The position numbers and the translations under genes were made by a program. Of a stretch of 64,000 bases of DNA, positions 29,919 through 44,364 are shown piece by piece. Where the stretch lies: positions 1 to 64,000 of the IMG/VR virus record IMGVR_UViG_2627853630_000004; one strand, 5' to 3'. Each line of letters begins with the position of its first letter. Position 1 is the first letter of the stretch. Below the pieces are notes generated by a model. That model saw only the letters and a program-made list of their open reading frames with translations. It was not told the DNA's origin and did not search any database. Source of the DNA: a virus (Duplodnaviria; Caudoviricetes).

Positions 29919-30200
29919 TTAGAAAGGTTTGTTAATAATTCTCTGAAATTTATAAAGCTCATTCTCAAAGGTTTCAATCTTACTCTCTTTATCACTTACC
30001 TGTCCCGAGGCCTCATCAGCACAAATGAATGCTGCACTTAATTTATCCTGAGCATACTCACTAAGCGAGCTATTTATCTTATTTTTCAAACCATTAAAAT
30101 TTGAAATATCATTTTTTGCTGATGATTTCGTATTGGATCTGGATATATTTCTTAACAATCTAGCTATTTCATTAAAATCACTTTCGTTTAGTTGATTCAT
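29919..30200 (-). CDS. AT-rich hypothetical protein (moron)
   Basis: AGGAG RBS; 93 aa. Confidence 0.6.
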   Translation of the reverse strand: MNQLNESDFNEIARLLRNISRSNTKSSAKNDISNFNGLKNKINSSLSEYAQDKLSAAFICADEASGQVSDKESKIETFENELYKFQRIINKPF

Positions 30201-30229
30201 CTCTGTTCTCCTTGTGACATGTCACAGAA

Positions 30230-30577
30230 CTATATATCTAATTTTATTTCATGCCACCCGCTTGTATTCCAGCAATCAGAATCACCGCTCATGCAGCATG
30301 ATGCTACTGGCAACGACTCACCGCATTTCCCGCAGCATTGGCGGTTGAGCGACTGAATACGCTGGCGCACTCTGGCATCATCTTGCCGTATCAGCAGTTG
30401 GATATATTCATCCATGTCATAGGGTTCCTTACCCGGACGGCGTAGCACACAATTGCGGCGCAACATATCAAGTTCCTGAGCATCAAGATTCAGTTCCAGC
30501 TTGGTTACGCCAGCCTCCCGCTGGCGCTCACGTTGTGCTCTTTTACGTGCGGCGGCACGCTCTTTAGTGTCTGTCAT
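30230..30577 (-). CDS. hypothetical phage protein with C-terminal Cys cluster
   Basis: AAARKRAQRERQ, RRPGKEPY, CGKCGE...C...GDSDCW; ATGA overlap with the methyltransferase gene. Confidence 0.7.
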   Translation of the reverse strand: MTDTKERAAARKRAQRERQREAGVTKLELNLDAQELDMLRRNCVLRRPGKEPYDMDEYIQLLIRQDDARVRQRIQSLNRQCCGKCGESLPVASCCMSGDSDCWNTSGWHEIKLDI

Positions 30578-32742
30578 GCAGCCACCTGCCATGCGCAGTA
30601 TTCGGGCAAGTTTGCAGCAACTAATGCCCTTGCCTCTGTTGGGCAGACGGCATTGCCGCAACGTGCTACCTGATCTTTCTGTGATATTGGGTTTCCATCT
30701 GGATCGCGATCGATAATGTAATCAGGCGGGAATCCTTGAGCGTTATACAACTCGCGTGGCGATAGCATCCGCATGCAAATATCGATGATGACGTAATCAC
30801 CAACGCGCAGGTATTGACGCCGCGGGGCTGGGAATAGATGGGGGTCATCAGGTAAATCACTGTACGCCTCAAACAGCCGAGCGCAGCACCATGCGTTATA
30901 TCGTTGTTCGTCAGTTAATGGCTGTATTTCGCATTCAACTTCAGTCAGTCCGAATCGATCCCGCGTCGGAATTGTGTGCATCGGTTCAGTGATAGAAACG
31001 CCGTCACGCTCATTGCCGTAGTATTTTGTCAGATACGCCTGAACATGCCCGACATGTTGACCACCAGCGGTGATTGTTGGTACCGGCTCTGTTGATTGCT
31101 GCCCATCTTGGCAGGTTCCACGCAACTTGATGAGGTGTGATGAGCACAAGGAATGATGATCGACCTGAGTTACTGTATGCAGCGGTTCATCCATGCAACA
31201 ACCTGGCCCAGAGTAACCACCGCCGTAATGCTTAATCAGGTTGGCTGCGATAACAGCTTTATGTGATGACGTCGGTACCGTGTCGTATGGCGCGTTAATG
31301 TCACGCGGTTTTCCCGAATACTTGGGGCCACCAGCACCAACCAAAATTGCAGATAATAACTGGCTCTTTCCACCGCCCCCCGCAGTGACAGTTCCTAGCG
31401 GGGTATCTACGGGGTTAGCTGTGCTATTACCGAACTGACGTACAACCACAGGAGCGGCAATACTAAATCCGTGCGCCTGCGTTATCGTCTGTAATGGCTC
31501 CCGCAACGATTGACCTCGGAAACAGTCGTACGCACTGCGATTGCTGGTGTGATTACACTTAACGGCGAATGGCTCTATCAGCAGATGTTCCGCTTTGCTG
31601 GTGACGGTCGTAATGGGCTGATTTACGGAATACGACAGCCGGTCACCACCGAAACCAGTTTGCCCAATCCGCACGATATACGGCTCAGGGTTATTAATCA
31701 CAAACCGATCCAAACCCCGAACGATGCGTTTTAACGTATTGTCTGCCAGCGGCTTTTTCCGGCCTAAAATGGAACGTGTCGGTAGTGGCCAGTCAATGCA
31801 ATCAGCAGCTGTTCGCCACGGTTTTAAATTGCCCTCGGAAAATTCCTTCGATCGTGGATCACCATACTCCGCTGCTGGCCACTCAACTGGCCGCCCGTCG
31901 CATCGTGCAACAACATACAGGCGCTTTCTGATAGTCGGCGCGCCAGACATGTACGCCTTGCGCTCCCTGTGATCAACGTTGTAACCCAAGCCCTTAACCA
32001 ATTTTTTGGCATCAGGGCCGTTAATGTCGATATTCAGGAATTCGCAACACTCAGCCAGCGCCGGATGATTCGCGGGAATGCCAGTGCTCAACATGCCAAT
32101 AAACGCGTTAAATGTTTCACCTCTTTTGGCTGGGTCTGGGTAATAGTTACCCGCCTTTTCAACCAATGGCCCCCATGACCGGAACTCTTCAACGTTCTCC
32201 ATCATCAGCACGCGCGGACGGGTCGCCAGCGCCCAGCGCAGAATCACCCACGCCAAACCGCGTATCTCCTTCTTAACTGGCGTGCCGCCCTTCGCTTTTG
32301 AGAAGTGACGGCAGTCTGGCGAAAACCAGCCGAGCAATACAGGCAGACCACCCGTTGAGACAACCGGATCGACGCTGAAGATGTCTTCGGGGTAATGCAG
32401 CGTACGCGGGTGATTCATTGCGTGCATCGCCATCGCTACAGGATTGTGATTCATTGCGATGTGCGGCTCGAATCCTAACGCTTGTTTGATGCCCTCGCAG
32501 CTCCCGCCGCCACCAGCGAAACCGACAACCACCAGCCCGTTTTCAACATCAGGCCGAGCGATTTCTATCGCTTGGCGCCGCGCCCATTTGTGAGCCGCCT
32601 TTTGAATGTCTGCCGGGTTTTCTCTGCGTAAAAACATTCCGTGCATTTCTGAGAGAAGCGCCTCTCGGCGCTCCGGTGATAATTGATGAACGGGTATCAC
32701 GGATGAGGCGCATTGCTTAACTTCTGTAGGCCAATCACTCAT
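30574..32742 (-). CDS. DNA cytosine-5 methyltransferase (large, repeat-containing)
   Basis: Motif I FAGGGG, IV SPDC, VI ENVEEF, VIII RKR, IX RMLSPREL..AQGFP, X GNAV. Confidence 0.9.
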   Translation of the reverse strand: MSDWPTEVKQCASSVIPVHQLSPERREALLSEMHGMFLRRENPADIQKAAHKWARRQAIEIARPDVENGLVVVGFAGGGGSCEGIKQALGFEPHIAMNHNPVAMAMHAMNHPRTLHYPEDIFSVDPVVSTGGLPVLLGWFSPDCRHFSKAKGGTPVKKEIRGLAWVILRWALATRPRVLMMENVEEFRSWGPLVEKAGNYYPDPAKRGETFNAFIGMLSTGIPANHPALAECCEFLNIDINGPDAKKLVKGLGYNVDHRERKAYMSGAPTIRKRLYVVARCDGRPVEWPAAEYGDPRSKEFSEGNLKPWRTAADCIDWPLPTRSILGRKKPLADNTLKRIVRGLDRFVINNPEPYIVRIGQTGFGGDRLSYSVNQPITTVTSKAEHLLIEPFAVKCNHTSNRSAYDCFRGQSLREPLQTITQAHGFSIAAPVVVRQFGNSTANPVDTPLGTVTAGGGGKSQLLSAILVGAGGPKYSGKPRDINAPYDTVPTSSHKAVIAANLIKHYGGGYSGPGCCMDEPLHTVTQVDHHSLCSSHLIKLRGTCQDGQQSTEPVPTITAGGQHVGHVQAYLTKYYGNERDGVSITEPMHTIPTRDRFGLTEVECEIQPLTDEQRYNAWCCARLFEAYSDLPDDPHLFPAPRRQYLRVGDYVIIDICMRMLSPRELYNAQGFPPDYIIDRDPDGNPISQKDQVARCGNAVCPTEARALVAANLPEYCAWQVAA

Positions 32743-32821
32743 GATCCACCACCTGATTTTTATCAGAGCGAACGACAGTCGCGCCTAGCACGTTTAATTG
32801 AGTGGTTGATAGCGTGGTCAT
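32735..32821 (-). CDS. 28-aa leader-like ORF overlapping the methyltransferase start
   Basis: MTTLSTTQLNVLGATVVRSDKNQVVDHE*, preceded by GAGGCAAGACCAA. Confidence 0.45.
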   Translation of the reverse strand: MTTLSTTQLNVLGATVVRSDKNQVVDHE

Positions 32822-33072
32822 TTGGTCTTGCCTCGTTTTTGGTCGTGATATTCGCGCCAGTAATTTAAGCGCGCTCTAAAATGTTCCCGATACTGCTCCG
32901 CTACCGTGTCCAGCTCTTTTTCAACGTTCCGGCGCAGGGCTTTTCCTGCTATGAGTTGATTTATTAACTGGTTGGCGCGCAGGTCTAGCCATTCCATATC
33001 CCTGAATTCCTGCGGCCACTCACCACGGTTATGAGGCAGTCCGGGCGGCAGGTAATCTGATTGCCCGGACAT
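32818..33072 (-). CDS. hypothetical phage protein
   Basis: SDYLPPGLPHNR.EWP; lies in the pR operon. Confidence 0.65.
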   Translation of the reverse strand: MSGQSDYLPPGLPHNRGEWPQEFRDMEWLDLRANQLINQLIAGKALRRNVEKELDTVAEQYREHFRARLNYWREYHDQKRGKTK

Positions 33073-33075
33073 GGG

Positions 33076-33462
33076 TTATGCCTCTATGGGTTTTATCGTG
33101 TCGAGAAGAAGACGGGCGCGAGTCGGACCACCAGCGCGGGTGCCAGTGTCCTTGTAATAAAACTCGCCAGTGCCAACCACCCACGTAGTCGGGGTTTCAC
33201 GTAATTTAACCGTGCGTTCCCCGCCCACACGGACAACGGTTCCCGTGTGGGTTTTCTTTGTTGTCAGCCGTTTCTTACCTGACGTTTTCGGGAGTGGGGA
33301 AAATTTCGGCGCAACAACTTGCCGCGGCGCGGGAGCTGGCACGTACGGTGAGCGTGTGCGAGCGCGGGCGTTTGCGTTCATAGCCCAAAGAATTGGGCCG
33401 GTGTGGTCGCAGCCGTCATCGGTCATGAATGCGCGTGCGTAAATAACATCAGTTGTAATCAT
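33076..33462 (-). CDS. hypothetical phage protein
   Basis: VKLRETPTTWV...Y.KDTG.R...RLLLDTIKP; start abuts AGGCAAGACC. Confidence 0.68.
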   Translation of the reverse strand: MITTDVIYARAFMTDDGCDHTGPILWAMNANARARTRSPYVPAPAPRQVVAPKFSPLPKTSGKKRLTTKKTHTGTVVRVGGERTVKLRETPTTWVVGTGEFYYKDTGTRAGGPTRARLLLDTIKPIEA

Positions 33463-33508
33463 GGTCTTGCCTCTTTTTTTGGTCGGTTAAGCGCTGGTCA
33501 GGCGCGGT

Positions 33509-34921
33509 TTAAAATTCTTCAATCGGTTGTTTCTTGCTGTATCGCCTGTCTTTCTCCTGCCCTTTCTCTGCCAGCGATCGAGCCTCATTCGTTGGGATAT
33601 TCTTGATATATCCATCAATCATCTGTGCGTACGCTGTTCCGCTCGGCCCCTCACGATTCAGTCGCACAATGAGTTCCATTAGGGTTTTATCCGCCTGCTC
33701 GTTGTAGACAGCGTCACGGTATAGCCCGATCCAAACATCACAATCCTGTTCGATCTGGCCGGTGTCTTTACTGTCTGAGGGCTGTGGCCGTTTGTCCGCG
33801 CGCTCTTCCAGTTTTCGGTTTAACTGCGTCAGCAGCAGCACGATGCAATCCAATTCTTTAGCCAGATTTTTTAAGCCGGTTGTTATCGCGCCGTAACTGA
33901 TGTCGCGGCGTTCCGCTTCCTCGCCTTTCATCAGTGTTAGGTAGTCCACAGCGACTAAACCAACGTGCCCCCGCTGACGTTTAACTTTTCTGCTCTCTGC
34001 TACGATATGGGCAAGTGACACGCCCGGCGTACTGTCGATCATCAGATTTGATTCGGACAGTTCAGCGGCTTTAGCCATTGCCAGCGCCATTTTTGAATCG
34101 TCGTATTCGCCGTTGTAAAACAGGTTTGAACTGATGAGCGCCTCTTGTGCGATCATTCGTTCAATAATCCCCCTGTCAGTCATTTCAAGGCTGAAAACCA
34201 GCGACGGGAGGCGATGATTTAATGCGAAATGCGTAGCGATTTTGTTGTATGTCGCGGTCTTACCCATTTTCGGGCGTGCCCCAACCACGATGAGTGAGCC
34301 ACGCAACGCTTGCTTAGGTGCCATGATTTCATCCAGCCCCTCAATGCCGAGCGTCAAGCCAGCTCCACCCGCAGGATCACTAAATCGGCGCTCAATCTCA
34401 TCAACCCAATCGCCAACGACATCAGTCGCAGGCCGCAACCCTCCCCTACGTCCAGTGCTGGCATGATCGACAACAGCGGTGATCATTTGCTGCACGCTGC
34501 TTAATCGGCTTTCGACTGTAGCGCCGCCGCTGGAGCTGACGATCTCAATGCATGAGTAGAGTTTTTCCAGCGTATAGCGCAGCACTGCTTTTTCACGCAC
34601 GATGCGAGCGTATGCGAGTGTGTTTGCAGCTACTGGCACCCGTGCCATTTCAGCCAGATATGCCATTCCCCCAACGGTCACCAATTCACCGTTTGATTCG
34701 AGTAATTCACTCAGGGTTATCAGGTCGGTCGGCTTTTCAGATCGCGACAGTTCAACCAGACGACGATAAATAATTTGATGTGCGCGCAGATAAAACGACT
34801 CAGCTTTCAGCAGGGACATCACAGCATGGCGGCGCTCATCGTCAGTATTCAGCATCAACCCGCCGATAACGGCCTGCTCTGCTGATGAGCTGTGCGGAAC
34901 AACAGGAATATCATTGGTCAT
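33509..34921 (-). CDS. dnaB: replicative DNA helicase, DnaB family
   Basis: PHS..AEQAVIGG, GARPKMGKT, FSLEM, VDYL, QLNR.LE.RADKRP..SD, GQIEQDCD. Confidence 0.95.
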   Translation of the reverse strand: MTNDIPVVPHSSSAEQAVIGGLMLNTDDERRHAVMSLLKAESFYLRAHQIIYRRLVELSRSEKPTDLITLSELLESNGELVTVGGMAYLAEMARVPVAANTLAYARIVREKAVLRYTLEKLYSCIEIVSSSGGATVESRLSSVQQMITAVVDHASTGRRGGLRPATDVVGDWVDEIERRFSDPAGGAGLTLGIEGLDEIMAPKQALRGSLIVVGARPKMGKTATYNKIATHFALNHRLPSLVFSLEMTDRGIIERMIAQEALISSNLFYNGEYDDSKMALAMAKAAELSESNLMIDSTPGVSLAHIVAESRKVKRQRGHVGLVAVDYLTLMKGEEAERRDISYGAITTGLKNLAKELDCIVLLLTQLNRKLEERADKRPQPSDSKDTGQIEQDCDVWIGLYRDAVYNEQADKTLMELIVRLNREGPSGTAYAQMIDGYIKNIPTNEARSLAEKGQEKDRRYSKKQPIEEF

Positions 34922-35681
34922 TAGCGCGCTCCTCTTTCACGGCGACATAGCAACGCTCAGTAACCAGGTAATCGATGTTTTTGCGTTTCCAGAATCCACC
35001 CCGCCCATTAGATCGGTCTTCCATCATCCAGCGGCAATGCACGGAGATATATTTCAAATAGGCCTGCCAACGCTCAGGAGTGAACTGGAATTTTTTCCAG
35101 AACGCTCGGATCGTTTTTTTTCTCGCGTCAGTCAAAATCTGAACGCGTGGCATGTCTGGAAGGGTTTCGTGGTACACATCCAGAATTTTTTGATAATCAA
35201 TTTTTTCAGCTGGCGGATTATCTGCTGGTGGAGCAGGCTCGCCTGATTCACCAATAACAGGTTCATTGACTGGTTCAGAAGGGTGACTGGTTCTGGTGCC
35301 ATCTGACGCCACAGGGGGTGTGCTTTCTGGTGGTACAGGTGGGTTTTCTGGTGACTCACCTGTGTTTTCTGACACCACAGGGGCTGTGATTTTTGGTGGC
35401 ACAGGGTTATCGAGCGTCAGATAGTAAACGTTCGACGTGTTCCCCTTCCCATTATTCTCACCGAGCCTGTTTTCTTTTGACAGAAAACCCATTTTTATCA
35501 ATGCGGTGATGTGTGCTTTAACGGCACTTTTGCTGCACTCGCACTGATCCGCAACATGCTGATATGACGGCCAGCACTCACCTTTGTCATTCGCGTTATC
35601 GGCCAGCTTAATGAGAACCAGCTTTCGCAGTGGGTTACCGACTTTGCGGCTCATGGCTTTTGCCATTAGGTTCATGCTCAC
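34911..35681 (-). CDS. replication initiator with N-terminal HTH
   Basis: KLVLIKLADNANDKGECWPSYQHVA; Pro-rich repetitive centre (likely ori iterons, ~35310-35405). Confidence 0.85.
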   Translation of the reverse strand: MSMNLMAKAMSRKVGNPLRKLVLIKLADNANDKGECWPSYQHVADQCECSKSAVKAHITALIKMGFLSKENRLGENNGKGNTSNVYYLTLDNPVPPKITAPVVSENTGESPENPPVPPESTPPVASDGTRTSHPSEPVNEPVIGESGEPAPPADNPPAEKIDYQKILDVYHETLPDMPRVQILTDARKKTIRAFWKKFQFTPERWQAYLKYISVHCRWMMEDRSNGRGGFWKRKNIDYLVTERCYVAVKEERANDQ

Positions 35682-35682
35682 G

Positions 35683-35910
35683 CTACACCCCCAGCGATTC
35701 CGCTAACTGACGGCACGCATCCTGATATTCGTCCGGCGATAGATTCATCTCACGCAATTCCGATTTGCGCTGTTCGTATTGCTCCCATACAGAGAGCGCT
35801 TCAGCCCTGCGGCCATCAAAGACAGGTTCAATATCACTGACGCTGGCTGGTTCGCCATTCAGCAAAAAGCCGTTCCTGTACGTGATTCGAATTCGGATCC
35901 TGGTGTGCAT
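35683..35910 (-). CDS. hypothetical phage protein
   Basis: Start reassigned to the ATG at 35910 behind GAGGCAAGACCA. Confidence 0.6.
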   Translation of the reverse strand: MHTRIRIRITYRNGFLLNGEPASVSDIEPVFDGRRAEALSVWEQYEQRKSELREMNLSPDEYQDACRQLAESLGV

Positions 35911-35932
35911 TGGTCTTGCCTCGCTATGCAAC

Positions 35933-36385
35933 TTATGCAACTAACTGCTGAGTAACTGGCAACAGCGCATACATCGCCTCTGTCGCTTTATTTATTCGTT
36001 GTGACATGTCACAGCATCCGAGCAGCACAGCATTCATCGCTGTGGAAAATTCACGGATGGCCACTGCCGTCAGGTAGTTAACAGATCGGTCATTCTGCAA
36101 ACGTGCCCGTCGTTCCCCCGGTAGAGCTGCAAGCATCACCGGAGCCAGCAACTGGACTTTTCTCTGTGCTGCGCGTGAGTCACTACGCAACCAGCGGAAA
36201 ATCTGCTGCCTGTTGTTATTTATCGATTTCCAGTCAGCAACGCCGCGCTGCTCGATTTCATGCAGCCGGATATGTGGATCGCCACCAGCCAGAAAAAATC
36301 GTTTGGTTATCTCGATCGCTACAGTTTCCTGTCCTGCATCAACCGCCCATGATTCGATCTCGTTCTTCAGCTCCTGAATATTCAT
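35933..36385 (-). CDS. CII-equivalent transcription activator, YdaT family
   Basis: W....GQETVAIEIT, NNRQQIFRWL; position after cro; TTGATT-N6-AATCA site just upstream. Confidence 0.78.
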   Translation of the reverse strand: MNIQELKNEIESWAVDAGQETVAIEITKRFFLAGGDPHIRLHEIEQRGVADWKSINNNRQQIFRWLRSDSRAAQRKVQLLAPVMLAALPGERRARLQNDRSVNYLTAVAIREFSTAMNAVLLGCCDMSQRINKATEAMYALLPVTQQLVA

Positions 36386-36403
36386 TGCGTCTCCTGTCGC
36401 AAA

Positions 36404-36421
36404 TTGATTTTTGATAATCAG
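36404..36421. promoter_or_regulatory. YdaT/CII-type binding site (pRE position)
   Basis: TTGATT-TTTGAT-AATCAG between cro and the ydaT-like gene. Confidence 0.7.
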
Positions 36422-36440
36422 ATTTACGCTGATATATCCG

Positions 36441-36635
36441 TCATTGTTTTCGGTACAGTTCCGGGTTGAATTTGAGTTCTCCGTTAGTTCTGATAGCGGC
36501 TTCTGTGGCTCGGCCTTTTGGGATTAGTTTTCCCTCTCGGGTTCGCCACTGATAAATAGCCTCAGTACTCACTTCAAAGAACTGAGCAACCTTCTCAACT
36601 GTTCCGAAATACTCTTCAATTTCGGTTGTAGTCAT
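36441..36635 (-). CDS. cro: Cro-like repressor
   Basis: 64-aa HTH (YFG...KVAQFFEVSTEAIYQW...IPKGRA), divergent from CI. Confidence 0.85.
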   Translation of the reverse strand: MTTTEIEEYFGTVEKVAQFFEVSTEAIYQWRTREGKLIPKGRATEAAIRTNGELKFNPELYRKQ

Positions 36636-36650
36636 TACGCCTCCCGTTAA

Positions 36651-36713
36651 CTAAGTTTGATTAGACATTAACACCTAATCAAACTTAGATCAACGAGTGC
36701 TAAGATAAGTTAG
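36651..36713. promoter_or_regulatory. OR operators and pR
   Basis: Three CTAA-N6-TTAG palindromes (36651-36664, 36675-36688, 36700-36713); minus-strand TTGATC-N17-TAATGT (36693-36665). Confidence 0.78.
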
Positions 36714-36732
36714 TTATTTTTATTTGGTGCGC

Positions 36733-37359
36733 ATGATGGAATCTGTAGGGCAACGAATTAAGCGATTACGAAAAATGACAAAAACGTCTCAAAAGGATTT
36801 GGGGCGCTACTGTGGTGTCTCTGATGTTGCTGTTGGTTATTGGGAAAAAGACATTAACTCACCCAGTGGGGAGCCCGTTTCCAAGCTAGCCAAATTCTTT
36901 AACACCAGCGTTGACTACATTTTGTATGGCACGAAGTTTGAGGGTGAGTTGATCACTAGCGTTCGCAGGGTTCCAGTTCTTTCGTGGGTACAAGCTGGGT
37001 TATTCACTGAATCAACATCGGACCTTATTGATGATTCAACCGAGTGGATTGAAACCGCAGCACCGCTATCAGGGCGAGCATTTGCATTACAGGTTCGTGG
37101 GGATTCAATGACTAACCCTAACGGGCTTCCCTCAATACCTGAAGGGGCGATTGTATTTGTTGATCCAGAGGTGGTGGCAGAAAGCGGGCGGATCGTCGTA
37201 GCGCGACTCAATGGCACATCAGAAGCCACTATTAAAAAACTTGTTATAGATGGCCCAACAAAATTACTCGTTCCCCTAAACCCTCGCTACCCCACACTAA
37301 CGATCAATGGTAATTGCATCATCATTGGCGTAGTTAAAAGCGTTCAGTACACTCTTTAA
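36733..37359 (+). CDS. cI: CI repressor (HTH plus S24 peptidase)
   Basis: HTH N-terminus, VQAG cleavage site, VRGDSM catalytic Ser, TIKKL catalytic Lys. Confidence 0.93.
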   Translation: MMESVGQRIKRLRKMTKTSQKDLGRYCGVSDVAVGYWEKDINSPSGEPVSKLAKFFNTSVDYILYGTKFEGELITSVRRVPVLSWVQAGLFTESTSDLIDDSTEWIETAAPLSGRAFALQVRGDSMTNPNGLPSIPEGAIVFVDPEVVAESGRIVVARLNGTSEATIKKLVIDGPTKLLVPLNPRYPTLTINGNCIIIGVVKSVQYTL

Positions 37360-37390
37360 CCCTCCCTCAGCATAAGCGAAAAACCGATAA

Positions 37391-37441
37391 CTAAGTTTAA
37401 TTCGGTTTTTTGTTGACATAAAATCTAAGTTAAATTAGATT
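37391..37441 (+). promoter_or_regulatory. OL operators and pL
   Basis: CTAAGTTTAATTCG (37391) and CTAAGTTAAATTAG (37425); TTGACA(37413-37418)-N17-TAGATT(37436-37441). Confidence 0.82.
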
Positions 37442-37643
37442 AAATCCATCAACAGCGAACAGGCAGGACGCCCACGAAGTAGCCGCTACCGGCGTATGAA
37501 CAGGTAGATGATTCGCTAAGTAAGGCAAGACCAACCCACGCCGCAGACCACGCTCTATGAGTGGCGACGTGGGAAAACAACCAGGCGCAGTTGCGCTGTT
37601 TGGGTAACACGTTCTGACAGCGGGAAAGACCGCAAATTAATTC

Positions 37644-37719
37644 GGCCCCTTAGCTCAGCGGTTAGAGCTATCCCCTCATAAGGGATTGGTCACTGGTTCA
37701 AATCCAGTAGGGGTCACCA
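37644..37719 (+). tRNA. tRNA with CAT anticodon, Ile2 (lysidine)-type body
   Basis: 76-nt cloverleaf GGCCCCTTAGCTCAG...ATCCC-CTCATAA-GGGAT...GGTTCAAATCC...GGGGTCACCA; acceptor and D arms resemble ileX. Confidence 0.9.
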
Positions 37720-37722
37720 AAT

Positions 37723-37781
37723 TAGCGATCAGGTGATTAACGGGTTTCCCTGCTCGTTACCCGGTTCGACTCCGGGCGCTA
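37723..37781 (+). ncRNA. truncated tRNA-like element
   Basis: T-arm CCCGG-TTCGACT-CCGGG, closing TAGCG/CGCTA, inner stem TAACGGGT/GCTCGTTA; no CCA and no proper D arm. Confidence 0.45.
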
Positions 37782-37884
37782 TTCGAAATCACGTTGCCAT
37801 CGTGATAACTGCGAGAGGTGTGTAGTCATTGGGCGGTGTGGGTTTTTGATCTTTCCCCTATCCGCCAATTTTTTTCGCAGACGT

Positions 37885-38010
37885 AAAAAAGCCCGCCTTG
37901 CGGCAGGCTTAGTTACCTCGGATAACCGACCAAAGTATTTCCGAGAGGTTTGCGGCGCTTACCAGGCGCCGCAAGGCAAGACCAATACCAACTAACGCTG
38001 ATACTGATCA
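37885..38010 (-). ncRNA. predicted trans-acting antisense sRNA (~125 nt)
   Basis: TATAAT at 38022-38017, two hairpins, then GCCTGCC-GCAA-GGCGGGC-T6 terminator (37910-37885); carries the complements of the repeated RBS motifs. Confidence 0.6.
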
Positions 38011-38033
38011 GCCGTGATTATACGAGGAACGCT

Positions 38034-38327
38034 ATGAAAGCGCCAGATATCACAACCACGCTGTACCTCCATCTCAACGCATTTACATCTGAACCGTTAA
38101 TTTGCACATGTGACATGTCACATTTTGGTCATGCGTTAATTTCAACGTGTGAAGTCTCCGTGCCATTTCCTGAAATAACCCCCGAATACCTTGCAGAACG
38201 CAAGATGTCAGCGTTACGGGAACAGCAACAAAAAATTCTCTCTGACGCTCAAATCAAGGCGAATGAACTGGAAGACCAGGTTCAGAAATTGCTGTGCGTT
38301 GAGCGCCAGAACAGCACCATTAAGTGA
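38034..38327 (+). CDS. hypothetical phage protein
   Basis: GAGG RBS, CDMS motif, coiled-coil C-terminus. Confidence 0.65.
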   Translation: MKAPDITTTLYLHLNAFTSEPLICTCDMSHFGHALISTCEVSVPFPEITPEYLAERKMSALREQQQKILSDAQIKANELEDQVQKLLCVERQNSTIK

Positions 38328-38337
38328 GGGTGAAGAC

Positions 38338-38622
38338 GTGGGTGATGTAGGTGATTACTACAGGGACTTAAAGCCGTACTTGAAGGAGCAGCGTCGAAAA
38401 GCACGAGATGGTGCATATGGGCGTATCAAAGCGTTCTTTGTTAGAAATGGTGTTCAGTTGGAAGAAGGAAATAACACACTAATTTTCCGCACACCACAAG
38501 GCACTGTTTGCTACTACCCACCAAGCCAGAGGATGCAGCACAAGCAATTATGGAAAGAATGCAGCCCGACCAGCTGCATGAACTATGTGAAAAAACTAAG
38601 AACTGAGAGGCAAGACCAATGA
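38338..38622 (+). CDS. hypothetical phage protein
   Basis: GTG start with GAGG RBS (MGDVGDYYRDLK); ATGA overlap with the next gene. Confidence 0.6.
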   Translation: MGDVGDYYRDLKPYLKEQRRKARDGAYGRIKAFFVRNGVQLEEGNNTLIFRTPQGTVCYYPPSQRMQHKQLWKECSPTSCMNYVKKLRTERQDQ

Positions 38623-40802
38623 CAACAGCAACATTTACCGCTGCTTTCTTTCCAAAGAAATCAGCTCAAAAAAATGGCGCGATACCGCTAGCAACAGCGA
38701 TCGAAGCAAAAAGCAAAAAACTGGCAGAAATGGCAGCAGTTATGCTGCTGGAAGAAACATTCCCTGGTGCCAGTGATAACTTCTTTAAACCAACCATCAC
38801 CGAGGATTCGATCGGTTCACCCCGTCCAGCCGTTGGAACGTTCGATGAGACATTCCTACAGGAAAATGAGCTGGTAGAGGGCGTCTGGCGGCGCATCGAG
38901 GCACCGACTCAGCCTAACGATCTCGTCGATTTCTCCACCCTCTCTTTGCGTGAAAAAATCGCGGCGTTTGCGTTGTATGCGCAATCTGAAATCACCGAGC
39001 ATGAATTCTCTATGGTGTGTGATTATCTCGATCTGCCGGATTTCGATGGCGATGGGGATACTAACGCAGACACGGACAAACTGATCCGCATACTCAGCGG
39101 TATTGAATTGTTGGAACAGGCTACTGACGAATTGCTACTCAGCGTAGTAAATGCCGTTAACGCTCGGTTCCCATCTATCGCAGATGTTGCGGATCGTGAA
39201 ATTCTGGCCTTTGTTGATACGTTAACATGCGCGCCCGGCGAAAATGACACGCAAGCGACAAAGCCGCTGATCGCTGGATTGGATCGTGAACGCCAGTACA
39301 CGCATACGCATCGAACATTAAACCGAGAAGTCGCCCTGTTCCTGGCTAACGACAACATCACAGATCCGTGGGAAGTAACAGAAGAACAGAAGGTTGCGGG
39401 TGATCAGGTGATGAAAAGCGGTGGTGACACGTATTCACGATGGTCAACCGAGTTGAGTATGGTTGAGGGCGCGTTAAAAATCCCCCGCCCCATAGTTTTC
39501 ATCTTGATAAATGAGGCCAAGAAACGCCCTGAATTATTGCTAGATGCAAACGCGCGTCAGCGGTTCGTTGTTGATTTTCTGGCTGAGCACACACCATCAG
39601 AAATCAAAGTTGAAAGCATGGGCAGCGGACGATTCTCTATTGATGGCCTGATGGGTGAAACCGCATCAAATCAGGGAGAAAAAACGGAAGTGGTCAGCAC
39701 GCCTGAGGCTGAAACAAAACAGACTGAAGCCGTTAACCCGCCAGCAGAAACCATTACGCAGCAGGCCAGCACCGAAGCTGGTGAGCAGATCATTAGCGAC
39801 GGCACAGTGCAGCAGGCAAAAGAAGCGCTCGATCAGCTGGGGTACGGCGTTTACGCGACAGAAACGGACGCACCAGCACCAGCACCAGCACCAGCAGACG
39901 ATTTTCAGCAAAGAGCTGAAGCCATTGAAGCCGAGATCGCCAAAAAACCAGACGCGGCACGCGGCAATCTATCTATTTGGCAGGGTGTCCAGAGAACCAA
40001 CCCTGCGCACACAAGGCGGAAAGAAACATGGAAGTGGGTTAACGGAAAACAAGAGCTATTGCGCGCAGTCACTAGCGTCAACCCTACGTACCAAATAATG
40101 AGAGCCACAGAAGTATTTGGACCGTTCGGGTTAGGTTGGGGGGTGGAAGTTACAGAGGAGCGATTCGATCCCGGATTACCACTAATGGAGCCAGTCTTTG
40201 ATAGCTCAGGGAGAGAGATAAACCGAAAACCCATGCGTGATGGTGATGGATCACTTGTCAGGGCGCTAAACCACACAATGCAAATACGATTATGGTACGT
40301 GCTGGATGGTGTGCGCGGAGAGTTTCCCGCTTTCGGGCATACGAAATATCTCTATGCAAAGAATAGTGGTGGCATGGTGTGTGACGATGAAGTCGGTAAA
40401 AAAAGCCTGACAGATGCCATCACAAAAGGGCTGTCAGCGCTTGGCTTTAGCGCCGATATCTACATGGGCATGTTTGATGATGACGAATATAAGAATAAAA
40501 ACGAAGCGGAATTCGGCATCAAAAACGCAAGTGACAAAGCCGAAGACGTGGTGCGTTTTCGCTCTGAGCTGGATGAGAAATTCACACGGAACGCGGCAAC
40601 GATGGAGACGACAGTCAGCGTCAATGAACTCAATAAGGTGTTTGGAGTTCTCGTACGTGAGATCGAAACACATCGTAAAGATGCAGAGGCAAAAGGTGAT
40701 ACAGAATACGCAAAATATCTATCTAGTCGTCTGCGTCGCCTTACTGAAATAAAAAGCGAGCGTGAAAAAGCACTCAAGGCCACTGAAGGGGAAAAAGCAT
40801 GA
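38619..40802 (+). CDS. recombination protein: RecE-like N-terminus fused to a Rad52/Sak-like annealing domain
   Basis: N-terminal KKSA.K.G...IEAKSKK; C-terminal TEVFGP.G.GWG, KKSLTDA..K.LS.LGFSADIYMG.FDD. Confidence 0.65.
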   Translation: MTTATFTAAFFPKKSAQKNGAIPLATAIEAKSKKLAEMAAVMLLEETFPGASDNFFKPTITEDSIGSPRPAVGTFDETFLQENELVEGVWRRIEAPTQPNDLVDFSTLSLREKIAAFALYAQSEITEHEFSMVCDYLDLPDFDGDGDTNADTDKLIRILSGIELLEQATDELLLSVVNAVNARFPSIADVADREILAFVDTLTCAPGENDTQATKPLIAGLDRERQYTHTHRTLNREVALFLANDNITDPWEVTEEQKVAGDQVMKSGGDTYSRWSTELSMVEGALKIPRPIVFILINEAKKRPELLLDANARQRFVVDFLAEHTPSEIKVESMGSGRFSIDGLMGETASNQGEKTEVVSTPEAETKQTEAVNPPAETITQQASTEAGEQIISDGTVQQAKEALDQLGYGVYATETDAPAPAPAPADDFQQRAEAIEAEIAKKPDAARGNLSIWQGVQRTNPAHTRRKETWKWVNGKQELLRAVTSVNPTYQIMRATEVFGPFGLGWGVEVTEERFDPGLPLMEPVFDSSGREINRKPMRDGDGSLVRALNHTMQIRLWYVLDGVRGEFPAFGHTKYLYAKNSGGMVCDDEVGKKSLTDAITKGLSALGFSADIYMGMFDDDEYKNKNEAEFGIKNASDKAEDVVRFRSELDEKFTRNAATMETTVSVNELNKVFGVLVREIETHRKDAEAKGDTEYAKYLSSRLRRLTEIKSEREKALKATEGEKA
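39870..39896 (+). repeat. (GCACCA)4.5 microsatellite encoding an Ala-Pro linker
   Basis: GCACCAGCACCAGCACCAGCACCAGCA, in frame. Confidence 0.85.
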
Positions 40803-41380
40803 GCAGAATTCACCACAACACGGCAATAGCAATTGCCGCTGATATGTCAAAGCTCCAAAGCCTACTGGAAGATTCTGAGGGTGGTATTGGAGAATTAACG
40901 CCAGAAATGATCGAAGACACAATGTCCGGTCTGGAAATGACGCTGGCGGATAAATTAGATTCCGTTCTGGTTCACGTTAGAAACCTGGAAGGTCAAGAGG
41001 AAACCTGCGACAAAGAAATTAAGCGCCTAAGTGATCGTAAAAAATCATTCCGCAACCAGGCAAAGCATCTGAAGCAATACATTTTAAATTGCCTGCTGGC
41101 GGCCAATCTCGACAAAATCAAAACAACAAAGAACACATTTACTGCGCGAAAAGGCGTGGTAAATGTGGTTATCGATAATGAATCACTTGTGCCTGACGAA
41201 TTCGTTAACTTACAGACAATCATAACGCCAGACAAGAAAGCCATTAAGGAGGCCATAGAATCCGCAGAGGCGGCGGTCGTGGAAATCACCGCGCGTGGCG
41301 AAACCCCTCCGGCTGAGTTGTTAAATCCGGTACCCGGTGCGCACATTGAAATCGGTGCGCGTTCTCTGCAAGTGCGGTAA
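40799..41380 (+). CDS. Siphovirus Gp157-family protein
   Basis: EIKRL..RKK......LKQY, PDKKAIKEAI, VPGAHIE....LQVR. Confidence 0.85.
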   Translation: MSRIHHNTAIAIAADMSKLQSLLEDSEGGIGELTPEMIEDTMSGLEMTLADKLDSVLVHVRNLEGQEETCDKEIKRLSDRKKSFRNQAKHLKQYILNCLLAANLDKIKTTKNTFTARKGVVNVVIDNESLVPDEFVNLQTIITPDKKAIKEAIESAEAAVVEITARGETPPAELLNPVPGAHIEIGARSLQVR

Positions 41381-41415
41381 CGGCTGACCACCGTATAGCA
41401 AGCGAGGCAAGACCA

Positions 41416-41592
41416 ATGCTAAAAATGAGCGCGCAGCGCGGGGACGTTATTCATATTGTTTTTGCTGATGGCCGGAATGGAATGATCGCAGTTCAATCAC
41501 GCAGTGTGCTGGCGATTCATTTTCCGCCAGATGTGAAAATAACGCGTGAACGTCGCCAGCAGGAAAAACTGATTAACGATAATCAGAAATAA
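41416..41592 (+). CDS. CsrA/RsmA-like small protein (58 aa, absent from the ORF track)
   Basis: MLKMSAQRGDVIHI...VLAIHFPPDVKITRE aligns without gaps to CsrA at M1, L2, G9, I14, P37, V40, R44, E45. Confidence 0.65.
   Translation: MLKMSAQRGDVIHIVFADGRNGMIAVQSRSVLAIHFPPDVKITRERRQQEKLINDNQK
41569..41586. promoter_or_regulatory. second YdaT/CII-type site (pI-like)
   Basis: CTGATT-AACGAT-AATCAG upstream of the orf-xis-int genes. Confidence 0.6.
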
Positions 41593-41639
41593 CCCGCCAT
41601 TAGCAATACCGTGTGACCTCCATTTTACAGGGGGTCACA

Positions 41640-41846
41640 ATGCAAGTATGGAAACCGGGCAAGTGCCTGTTATCTGAGTTCGATATTAAAATCGGTCGGC
41701 TGTCTGCAAGCGTAAGGAAGACCACTCTAACGCAACAGGATATAGACCAGTCTTGTGCAGCAGCCGACGCAATCATTGATAAATTAAGGCAAGACCATGA
41801 CCGACCTGTTAACCGACGACGAGCTAATAGAACTGACAGGCTATAA
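41640..41846 (+). CDS. small hypothetical phage protein
   Basis: GGGGG RBS; FDIKIGRLSASVR. Confidence 0.55.
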   Translation: MQVWKPGKCLLSEFDIKIGRLSASVRKTTLTQQDIDQSCAAADAIIDKLRQDHDRPVNRRRANRTDRL

Positions 41847-42012
41847 GTATGCGTCGAAGCAACGCGCCGCTCTAACCCGATCCGGCATTTCGTTTATCAC
41901 CCGTAGGGATGGGCGACCCAGCGTCACATGGGCGGCAATTAATGCCAGCCTATCCACTGTGAAAGCTGAGCAATTTAAAGACGTTGAACAGCCTAATTTT
42001 GATGCGATTTAA
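41797..42012 (+). CDS. xis: excisionase-like protein (DUF4224-like)
   Basis: LLT.DELIELTGY...SKQ...L...GI.F..R.DGRP.V, PNFDAI; directly before int. Confidence 0.82.
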   Translation: MTDLLTDDELIELTGYKYASKQRAALTRSGISFITRRDGRPSVTWAAINASLSTVKAEQFKDVEQPNFDAI

Positions 42013-42014
42013 TC

Positions 42015-43040
42015 ATGGCTCGTAAACGTAAAGATCCCCGCGATAACGCATTACCGCCACGCGTATATCGCGGGAAAAGTAAATATGAATTCCACCCGAT
42101 TGGTGGCGGCTCTATTTCACTATGCCCTCTCGATTCCCCCATTCCACTAATCTGGGAGAAATACGACGCGGCAAATAATTATCGCGAGGAAAAATTTACT
42201 CTGGAACGAATGGCCGGGCGATTTATGCAATCACCAGACTTCCTCGATCTCGCGAGTGAAACACAAAAGGACTACCGGAAATACTCTGCGAAAATAATTC
42301 CAGTTTTTGGGGGGATGTCGCCGGATTCGATTAAACCTGAACACATCAGGAAATACATGGATAAACGGGGCGTGAAAAGCAAGACGCAGGCGAACAGAGA
42401 AAAGGCGTTTCTTTCGCGAGTATTTCGGTGGGGATACGAGCGGGGGCTATGTAAAGGCAACCCATGCAAGGGCGTTAAACAGTTCAAAGAGGTGGCGCGA
42501 GATCGTTACGTGACTGATGACGAGTATAACGCCCTGTACTCCGTCGCAGCTCCATTTGTCCAGGTGGCTATGGAAATAGCCTATCTGTGTCTCTCACGGC
42601 AGGGGGATGTTCTCTCGCTGACTGAGGGGCAAATATTAGATCAGGGGATTTTTATCGCTCAGGGAAAAACGGGCGCAAAACAAATCAAGGCATGGACGGA
42701 CAGGCTGAGAGCCGCTGTAACAAATGCACGTAACTTGCCAATAAAACCGGGCATCAGCAGTATGTACATAATCCATCAACCGACCGGAGGGCGCTACACT
42801 CGCGACGGATTCAACAGCCGCTGGCAGCAAGCCAAAGAAGATGCGGCCACGGCGTTCCCACACTTGAGCTTTGATTTCACTTTTCACGATCTCAAGGCTA
42901 AAGGGGTTTCAGATCTCGATGGGACGTTAGCAGAAAAACAGGCAATATCGGGACACATGACAATCAGCCAGACAGCACGATACGACCGAAAGATACCGAT
43001 CGTTCCTGTTGTGGGTGGTCAGAATAAAAATTCAAAATAA
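42015..43040 (+). CDS. int: tyrosine integrase of prophage 1
   Basis: R (SRQGD), K (QGKTG), HDLK, GH, Y (TARYDR); adjacent to att. Confidence 0.93.
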   Translation: MARKRKDPRDNALPPRVYRGKSKYEFHPIGGGSISLCPLDSPIPLIWEKYDAANNYREEKFTLERMAGRFMQSPDFLDLASETQKDYRKYSAKIIPVFGGMSPDSIKPEHIRKYMDKRGVKSKTQANREKAFLSRVFRWGYERGLCKGNPCKGVKQFKEVARDRYVTDDEYNALYSVAAPFVQVAMEIAYLCLSRQGDVLSLTEGQILDQGIFIAQGKTGAKQIKAWTDRLRAAVTNARNLPIKPGISSMYIIHQPTGGRYTRDGFNSRWQQAKEDAATAFPHLSFDFTFHDLKAKGVSDLDGTLAEKQAISGHMTISQTARYDRKIPIVPVVGGQNKNSK

Positions 43041-43103
43041 TTGCATATTCACCAAACACGCAAAAATCATATTAGGAAGAATATTAGGAAAGGCGGTTTT
43101 AGG

Positions 43104-43229
43104 TACAAAAAAACCGCCTTTCGGCGGTCTACGACATTGCACATAAGTGCTTGTTTTAATTCGTATTAAATCAATGGTGCCCGGGGCGGGACTTGAACCC
43201 GCACAGCGCGAACGCCGAGGGATTTTAAA
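43104..43229 (-). repeat. att site copy 2 (tRNA-Leu 3' half at 43175-43229): junction of prophage 1 and the P2-like prophage
   Basis: Direct repeat of 208-333; includes the ACCGCC-GAAA-GGCGGT-T7 terminator. Confidence 0.92.
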
Positions 43230-43359
43230 AAGTTACACCACATCAAATAAAACAATAGGTTAAGTGATATCAAATGGTTGCGCATACGCAATAACACGAA
43301 ATTTCACGCCACTCCTGTTTTTGCTGCCACCGAAAAACGAGATTCCGCCACTACAATTA

Positions 43360-44364
43360 TTAATCTGTAGTTAATGAATCGAACGGGTTTAAGGTAACAG
43401 CCGCATCCAGATGATCCGGTGCAAAATGGGCGTAACGCATCGTCATGGTGATCGTGCTGTGACCTAAAATCTGTTGCAGTACCAGAATATTTCCGCCGTT
43501 CATCATGAAGTGTGATGCGAATGAGTGACGTAAAACGTGGGTAAGTTGCCCGCTAGGTAGCTCAATGCCAGCCCGTTTAATGGCGTACTTGAAAGACTCA
43601 TAAGCTGGGGTGAAAAGCGAACCACGCTTCTTAGGCAAAAGGCTGCGCATCTTCTCAGAAATTGGCACCGTTCTGTTTTTATTCCCTTTCGTTCTGGTGA
43701 ACGTGACGCGGCTTGGCAGGATTTGAGATTGCTTTAAATCCTGTGCTTCACTCCACCGCGCTCCTGTCGCCAGGCATAGACGAACGATGATACCCAAATC
43801 CTTATTGTCTGATTCGTCACATGCAGTCAGCAGGCGCTTTATTTCATCGGGATAAAGAAATGCCAGTTCCTGATCCCCCTCTTTGAACTGGCGTATGCCG
43901 TCCAATGGATTTTCTTTATCCCACTCCCCCATCCTTTTCAACTCGGAAAAGACCGCGCGTAGGTAAGAGTATTCACGGTTGACCGTCGCTTCTTTCAGAA
44001 CGGCTTTACCCTTTGGATTCCACTCACCTTTAAGGCGTCGTTCGCGATACACGGCAAACATATTTTTATCAACGTCGATAGCAAACGGATCACCCAAGCG
44101 TTCACAGATAGCGAGTAATTTCGTGTAGCGGGAATCACCGGACGATAACGTTTTGCCGTGCATGTCATACCAACGCTGAACCAAATCTTTCAGAGTGATA
44201 TTACTGGTTGTGGTATCAATGCCTTTTTTATCGGCCATAAGGCGGCGCTCATAGGAAAGCGCCTCACCACGGGTGGCAAACTGTTTGCGGATGCGTTTAC
44301 CATCACGGCCATAAGGGAAGCACTGGCAAAGCCATTTGCCGGATGGAAGTTTACTTACAGCCAT
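43360..44364 (-). CDS. int: P2/186-type tyrosine integrase
   Basis: TGARWSEA, TKGNK.R, HVLRHSFASHFM, LGH...MTMRYAH. Confidence 0.95.
   Translation of the reverse strand: MAVSKLPSGKWLCQCFPYGRDGKRIRKQFATRGEALSYERRLMADKKGIDTTTSNITLKDLVQRWYDMHGKTLSSGDSRYTKLLAICERLGDPFAIDVDKNMFAVYRERRLKGEWNPKGKAVLKEATVNREYSYLRAVFSELKRMGEWDKENPLDGIRQFKEGDQELAFLYPDEIKRLLTACDESDNKDLGIIVRLCLATGARWSEAQDLKQSQILPSRVTFTRTKGNKNRTVPISEKMRSLLPKKRGSLFTPAYESFKYAIKRAGIELPSGQLTHVLRHSFASHFMMNGGNILVLQQILGHSTITMTMRYAHFAPDHLDAAVTLNPFDSLTTD

Follow-up and report, generated by a model that had tools for sequence, protein, structure and literature searches.

A two-part ACCA signal at early-gene starts of ZF40-like prophages, with a candidate diverged CsrA encoded in the same operon

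Several early genes of a lambdoid prophage related to Pectobacterium phage ZF40 carry a two-part ACCA signal at their starts, and the signal recurs as a multi-hairpin copy in the leader of the left operon. The same kind of structured, repeated RNA signal stands at early-gene starts in prophages of Pectobacterium, Serratia, Klebsiella, Enterobacter, Yersinia, and others, and it matters even without a reader. New here are the covariation of the leader, its hexaloop parallel with CsrA, and the variants of the motif. The left operon also encodes a protein of 58 amino acids (aa), probably of CsrA-like ancestry, which we tentatively propose as the reader of the signal.

The window analyzed, a 64-kb stretch that is part of a 75-kb virus record, contains a prophage whose closest isolated relative is ZF40. 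Its early left operon runs in the order cI, leader with tRNA, two small ORFs, a 727-aa exonuclease with a Rad52-like C-terminal part, Gp157, the 58-aa ORF, a 68-aa ORF, xis, and int (Table 1). The palindrome TGTGACATGTCACA occurs three times in the early region (30213, 36000, and 38109) and is present in several related prophages too. Beyond the first prophage, positions 43360 to 64000 hold another integrase together with P2-like genes, which suggests that two adjacent prophages make up the record; the ACCA motif is absent from that part.

The sequence AGGCAAGACCA occurs eight times in the window, where about 0.1 copies are expected, and every copy lies in an early operon. Likewise, the 10-mer GGCAAGACCA has eight exact copies in the record (0.08 to 0.15 expected), all on the sense strand and all between 32.8 and 41.8 kb. 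Six of the eight window copies precede an ATG, one of which opens just 28 codons, and the other two are in the leader. The 135 loci that have three or more copies contain 364 distinct sites, of which 256 fall within 8 nt of an ATG that opens at least 30 codons. The original prediction had taken GACCA as the repeated word. The repetition was confirmed; GACCA by itself shows no enrichment in the window (94 seen, 103 expected), and the spacer of the motif differs by lineage (AGGAAAGACC, AGGCAAGACC, AGGCAAAACC, and AGGAATAACC), so that the constant part is the SD followed by ACC(A), and the core is ACCA rather than GACCA. At the exonuclease/annealing gene, xis, and the ORFs after cII and after the helicase, this core is placed between SD and start codon.

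The second part of the signal is a hairpin. Among loci found via the protein, an ACCA-loop hairpin lies within 60 nt upstream at 182 of 360 sites, compared with 100 of 2,400 random positions; an earlier count that included pattern-selected loci had found the CUGACCA-type loop on stems of several sequences. In the window, five of the eight sites, that of the 58-aa gene included, have such a hairpin, and three are without one. The complete bipartite motif predicted for the RBS of the 58-aa gene is thus present here, and it is specific to some lineages: 13 of 61 distinct proteins, from several lineages, have an own-RBS motif, and Klebsiella- and Serratia-type members are without it. RNA-library contigs of a related strain, all from one study, span 41330-41799 and the leader, and they cannot show strand, level, or transcription.

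Table 1. Positions of the signal and of neighboring features in the window
Feature	Position	Strand	Remark
Motif before 28-codon ORF	32823..32833	-	Upstream of 722-aa gene
Motif in RBS of 128-aa ORF	33462..33472	-	After helicase gene
CUGACCA-loop hairpin	33491..33505	-	Upstream of post-helicase ORF
Motif in RBS of 75-aa ORF	35911..35921	-	After cII; copy without an ACCA hairpin upstream
Sigma70-like promoter, left operon	37413..37441	+	10/12 consensus matches; 1.4 expected by chance in region
Non-coding motif copy	37523..37533	+	In leader
tRNA, CAT anticodon	37644..37716	+	Inside left-operon leader
Terminator-like hairpin	37889..37910	-	Antisense-facing; conserved directly upstream of ACCA hairpins
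Leader hairpin 1	37917..37945	+	Invariant loop core GACCAAA
Leader hairpin 2	37949..37975	+	ACCA loop; strongly covarying stem
Non-coding motif copy	37974..37984	+	Right after hairpin 2; 50 nt before first left-arm ATG (38034)
ACCA-loop hairpin	38560..38578	+	Upstream of exonuclease/annealing gene
Motif in RBS of exonuclease gene	38608..38618	+	727-aa exonuclease/Rad52-like gene
Hairpin with 7-nt loop CUGACCA	41380..41394	+	Upstream half of 58-aa ORF's own site
AGGCAAGACCA in RBS of 58-aa ORF	41405..41415	+	Abuts ATG
58-aa ORF, candidate diverged CsrA	41416..41592	+	ATG to TAA; PHROG 2482, ZF40 gp05 ortholog; five predicted beta strands, residues 2-45
Inverted repeat YTGATTA-N4-TAATCAG	41569..41586	.	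Overlaps ORF 3' end; in 50/61 members
ACCA-loop hairpin	41735..41756	+	Upstream of xis
Motif in excisionase RBS	41787..41797	+	

We found 47 distinct leader elements and aligned 30 of them; in the aligned leaders, a motif copy follows two hairpins whose ACCA loops are invariant. Of the 13 pairs predicted by RNAalifold, we counted the nine flanking the loops and left out four invariant ones. Both-side changes were present in nine of nine counted pairs. In figures that are inflated, since the structure was derived from the same alignment and the sequences are related, 87.4% of stem cells were paired (shuffles, 53.9 ± 2.3; slid partners, at most 47.5%), and the covariation score of 0.747, against 0.208, was reached by none of 500 shuffles. 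In an alignment-free check of hairpin 2, 27 of the 30 sequences had a stem of 4 to 12 bp, and 25 of the 30 had an N-ACCA-N hexaloop. The high-affinity site of CsrA is described, in the accessible part of PMC4005645, as an ANGGAX hexaloop directly on a stem; the leader hexaloop has the same geometry, with CCA in the place of GGA.

Searches for known elements in this region returned little. Rfam matched just the tRNA and, weakly, an antisense element on the tRNA in window positions 30000 to 44000 (E up to 5); in five related loci the sole match at gathering score was SraC/SdsR, which lies outside the leader. A put-type antiterminator was rejected as a candidate for the leader after comparison by eye with HK639 putL gave no evident likeness, and a search of the literature found nothing. 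There is also an extra short leader hairpin of the CTGACAGC-GGGAAAGACC type at 37620-37637, which occurs in many relatives, sometimes several times.

The 58-aa ORF is real, and its limits differ from those first given (41380..41592), since the upstream hairpin begins at 41380. The description of the gene as uncalled was overstated: its ZF40 ortholog gp05, 93% identical, is an annotated hypothetical CDS, and the Atlas contains the exact sequence. The HMM of PHROG 2482 matched the window protein over its full length (residues 1-58; E 2.7e-27), and all 39 aligned family members matched it as well. Relatives are found in Pectobacterium, Brenneria, Serratia, Klebsiella, Yersinia, Rouxiella, and Sodalis; when metagenomes were scanned with the most divergent family member, only two 16-residue matches came back. 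Among the 61 distinct proteins recovered from loci, M1, G19, I24, and P37 are invariant, R29 is retained in 58, and R44 is retained in 45, the window protein among them.

The conserved C-terminal tail, LIxxNQK, was rejected as a protein feature, because the overlapping inverted repeat at 41569-41586 encodes those residues. In three divergent members, the repeat sits 163 to 595 nt past the stop codon, outside the reading frame, and its conservation is at the DNA level. It is likely an operator or a recombination-related site upstream of the next ORF and xis-int. A second inverted repeat, GTGACC ... GGTCAC at 41615-41640, would cover the RBS of the 68-aa ORF, and a similar one is found in phage BUCT709.

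We consider the 58-aa protein a likely homolog of CsrA that has diverged, retaining the five-strand core and losing the helix, while falling short of family membership. Using E. coli CsrA from NC_000913.3 as the reference, we confirmed the ungapped identities (M1, L2, G9, I14, P37, V40, R44, and E45), the conservative changes (L4M, T5S, E10D, L12I, I32L, V34I, E39D, and V42I), and the altered R6, R7, and H43 reported in the original prediction, and found two further identities, Q49 and Q57. The ungapped score over residues 1-47 was exceeded by 0.1% of 20,000 shuffles (p about 0.001); across the family the median z was 3.8, with z > 3 in 45 of 61, relative to a shuffle null that ignores beta-strand periodicity. 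The HMM search against the CsrA Pfam family that had been suggested as a check gave weak hits, all below cut-off: CsrA was the Pfam family most often matched by members (6 of 38; best E 0.013), and the PF02599 gathering cut-off of 27 bits was not reached, the window protein having no match and the best family member scoring 15.9 bits. Language-model features in the Atlas placed CsrA clusters at the top of those with a Pfam family (0.85-0.86), and these we take as leads only. When the family HMM was run over 401 genomes of the order, it recovered, apart from the seed genome, a single ORF (E 2.4e-4 per genome), and this sole outside match is a genuine CsrA (57 bits) adjoining an alaS-like gene, an arrangement as in E. 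coli.

Other comparisons did not recover CsrA. BLASTP found no local alignment between the 58-aa protein and CsrA, single-sequence comparisons with Pfam and PDB gave no CsrA match, and an NCBIfam search returned nothing relevant to the protein. Aligned by hhalign, the family and the CsrA profile gave a probability of 1-2%, and 5 of 149 column shuffles, as well as the reversed alignment, scored equally. Against PDB sequences, the family profile matched adhesin repeats and, weakly, AbrB, and not CsrA. Long repeat proteins of that kind were set aside.

The predicted model (mean pLDDT 82) has strands at residues 2-6, 11-15, 21-25, 30-34, and 41-45, and so has the five consecutive beta strands that define CsrA in the accessible part of PMC7366521. 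The model has no C-terminal helix after beta5, where the tail is shaped by the overlapping DNA palindrome; the control model of a genuine CsrA is likewise scant in helix, with just two 3-residue helical runs. Three PDB fold searches with the monomer model did not have CsrA among the matches listed. In the control search with the genuine CsrA model, an easier case at 43% identity, CsrA chains took ranks 1 to 15. We did not treat the absence of CsrA from the listed matches as exclusion. TRAP was the best match among those listed (Z 4.3-4.8; at Z 4.8, rmsd 3.9 with 52 residues aligned) and was rejected as the fold identity, because these Z values fall within the tool's range for a common arrangement. 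The rearranged family member RsmF compared poorly with the control CsrA model (E 3.0). The CsrA-like identity first proposed from ungapped residues therefore stands as probable ancestry, supported weakly by the sequence-level tests and not by the profile-profile comparison, which was near chance, or by the fold searches.

Gene and motif tend to occur together. In 401 genomes of the family, we obtained a gene match in 16 and the strict bipartite pattern in 12, with eight in common. One of the 16 gene matches was dropped (two stops, not recovered on re-examination), and at least three motif-variant copies lay near the gene in 14 of the 15 credible gene-bearing genomes, the exception being a 5'-truncated gene copy on a 12-kb contig. 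Three of the four pattern-only genomes (all but G539) were examined: G005 and G006 had no left-arm markers in 20 kb, and G540 had no phage markers. Among 163 viral loci found by the pattern, which overlap and whose selection is partly circular, the gene was present in 51 of the 51 with both flanking markers. Several apparent cases of motif without gene were rejected: L088, L347, L366, and L397 lie at locus or contig ends, G004 and G008 both carry the gene, and L097/L140 and L405 are remnants whose left arm is missing. Thus, motif-bearing phages without the gene, which were to count against its role as reader, were not found among intact left arms. Prophage remnants without the gene retain one to four motif copies.

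Seven gene-less phages with a related cII, xis, or exonuclease (five early regions and two whole records) had zero to three dissimilar loose matches, and 80 PPompW-type loci, near-identical and counted as one control, had no gene match and no motif at a start codon. At the level of the order, the loose bipartite pattern occurred in 51 of 401 genomes, which is background, as a reversed control was similar. Also common to the motif-bearing family are cI, cro, cII, the post-cII ORF, the first left-arm gene, the exonuclease N-terminus, and xis. The co-occurrence is compatible with shared descent and does not in itself identify the reader. It does narrow the field in the most divergent member, L435 (G663:C2), where the 58-aa-type gene is retained, the motif variant GAGGAATAACCA precedes the exonuclease, xis, and the post-cII ORF, and neither gp157 nor orf68 was detected, which removes two rival readers. 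By eye, RecT-like and YqaJ-like ORFs replace gp157 in L435.

We propose that prophages of the ZF40-like family may operate a private post-transcriptional circuit, Csr/Rsm-like in build and using a different RNA word. A dimer of the 58-aa protein would bridge the loop ACCA and the RBS ACCA and block initiation, and the leader ACCA sites would titrate the protein. Repression of the recombination and excision genes would then set in only after the protein had accumulated, giving a timer, and in lineages with an own-RBS site, this one included, the 58-aa gene would also repress itself. The enrichment of the motif at start codons, the covarying leader hairpins, the hexaloop parallel, the weak CsrA signals, and the co-occurrence all point toward the 58-aa protein as a phage-private, CsrA-derived translational regulator that reads ACCA and is titrated by the leader, a reading that we put forward tentatively.

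Such an orthogonal reader with non-coding decoys was among the possibilities named in the original prediction; the covarying ACCA hairpins and the co-occurrence speak for it, and the reportedly GGA-locked fold of CsrA counts against it. As for modulation of the host Csr network, another of those possibilities, the analysis yielded evidence in neither direction. According to the accessible part of PMC4005645, the protein backbone reads the A(N)GGAX bases, which are irreplaceable within the CsrA fold, so that an ACCA reader would require altered backbone geometry. CsrA homologs are reported to differ in tolerating GGA change, according to the part available of a preprint (bioRxiv 10.1101/2025.05.05.652322). 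We hold with less confidence the specific version in which a CsrA-derived protein switched from GGA to CCA at the same hexaloop position and, with a leader sponge and RBS targets, formed a Csr-type circuit insulated from the host.

The ACCA code could instead be real and read by another phage protein (the post-cII ORF, the first left-arm gene, or Xis) or by a host factor, possibly in antitermination, with the 58-aa protein a passenger of the recombination module. The short RBS-side hairpin is reminiscent of lambdoid boxB, and covariation and co-occurrence would fit any family-wide reader. The same view gains from the fact that most members have no own-RBS site, that CsrA was not recovered in fold searches of the 58-aa model, and that the CsrA fold is reportedly locked to GGA (PMC4005645, accessible part). 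However, the sites abut start codons and do not cluster in leaders, none of the eight window sites has a boxA-like string within 60 nt, two candidate readers, gp157 and orf68, went undetected in L435, and the 58-aa gene is the only conserved gene that resembles a loop-plus-RBS RNA binder. We judge another reader less likely than the 58-aa protein.

Less probable again is that the motif is a strong, start-associated RBS cassette spread and maintained by recombination and that the protein is a degenerate CsrA, acting on host Csr/Rsm (GGA RNAs, RsmB, or RsmA heterodimers) or on nothing. Start-associated repeats without known function do exist (PMC3203893), canonical CsrAs are widespread in phages (99 phage records; PMC7366521), and the phage CsrA bci affects host phenotypes (PMC7546807), as far as the accessible parts of these papers go; the CsrA of VvAW1 shares an operon with a related annealing gene. 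Yet a cassette leaves unexplained the non-coding copies and the ACCA loops that persist on stems with sequence turnover, and a host-directed relic fits poorly with a protein in which R6, R7, and H43 are changed, the helix seems to be gone, and R44 is variable. Host CsrA itself is an unlikely reader of the ACCA sites, since ANGGA occurs within 60 nt of only one of the eight window sites. Finally, a phage antisense RNA that targets the ACCA sites and stops at the terminator on the minus strand (37910-37889), with the protein accessory or unrelated, is improbable: a counter-transcript over the leader hairpins would carry the motif complement and could pair in trans with loops or RBSs, a conserved terminator-like hairpin faces the antisense direction a short way upstream of the ACCA hairpins, and exposed invariant loops suit loop-loop pairing, but no minus-strand sigma70 promoter matched in 37300-38700, the sites share a core of only 4 to 11 nt, and the RNA-library contigs carry no strand information.

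The 58-aa protein and its putative targets resemble several known systems in part. Like CsrA/RsmA/RsmE (PF02599), it is a five-strand protein of about 60 aa with M1, L2, G9, P37, V40, R44, and E45 in register, and the two-site loop-plus-RBS target, the hexaloop, and the multi-hairpin non-coding copies are like those of that family and its CsrB/RsmZ-type decoys, as described in the accessible literature. Unlike that family, the phage protein lies below the Pfam cut-off, has no predicted C-terminal helix and changed R6, R7, and H43, and is paired with ACCA rather than GGA; the decoy-like hairpins sit in an operon leader and are known here as leader, not as free sRNA. Canonical phage CsrAs (Bci of Pseudomonas AUS531phi and those of F116, phi297, and Vibrio VvAW1) are also small genes in phage genomes, but they are 57-69% identical to E. 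coli CsrA. VvAW1 has its CsrA in one operon with a homolog of the annealing domain of the ZF40-like phage, whereas the part of VvAW1 examined has no ACCA motif copy and only four dissimilar loose matches. RsmN/RsmF of Pseudomonas aeruginosa is said to be a structurally rearranged member of the CsrA family (PMC3791407) and thus a precedent, but it still binds GGA RNAs. The SAS/ESAS of cluster K mycobacteriophages are likewise asymmetric repeats directly upstream of many starts, and roughly half of them have another element further upstream, which in ESAS is an inverted repeat of 17 bp whose spacer varies (PMC3203893, accessible part). In the ZF40-like phages, by contrast, a fixed loop sits on a variable stem. 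The mycobacteriophage repeats are unrelated in sequence and host, and in the present case the operon itself encodes a candidate reader.

We found no published work on the ACCA motif or the 58-aa family in a search that covered subscription journals thinly, and the accessible parts of papers on ZF40 (PMC3391216), Serratia temperate phages (PMC7556043), and TldR-linked CsrA (PMC13418256) mention neither. If the 58-aa protein reads ACCA, it would represent a naturally occurring CsrA whose base specificity has changed, and the circuit would give phages a post-transcriptional timer beyond the reach of host CsrA and CsrB, supply an orthogonal translation-repressor part, assign a function to the unannotated PHROG 2482, and offer a testable model for start-associated sequences elsewhere. 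A switch from GGA to CCA would further mean that excision and recombination are timed in this way in a widespread enterobacterial prophage family, and it would contradict the view of the base limits of the CsrA fold in the accessible part of PMC4005645.

Two minor observations concern relatives of the prophage. Phage BUCT709 (L002, OM816835.1), which is labelled a Stenotrophomonas phage, has an early region and a 58-aa-type protein near-identical to those of enterobacterial prophage members. In addition, an RNA-library contig from a related strain fuses the stretch at 35875-35908 to a CRISPR-like repeat, presumably of type I-E, which suggests a spacer against the post-cII ORF.
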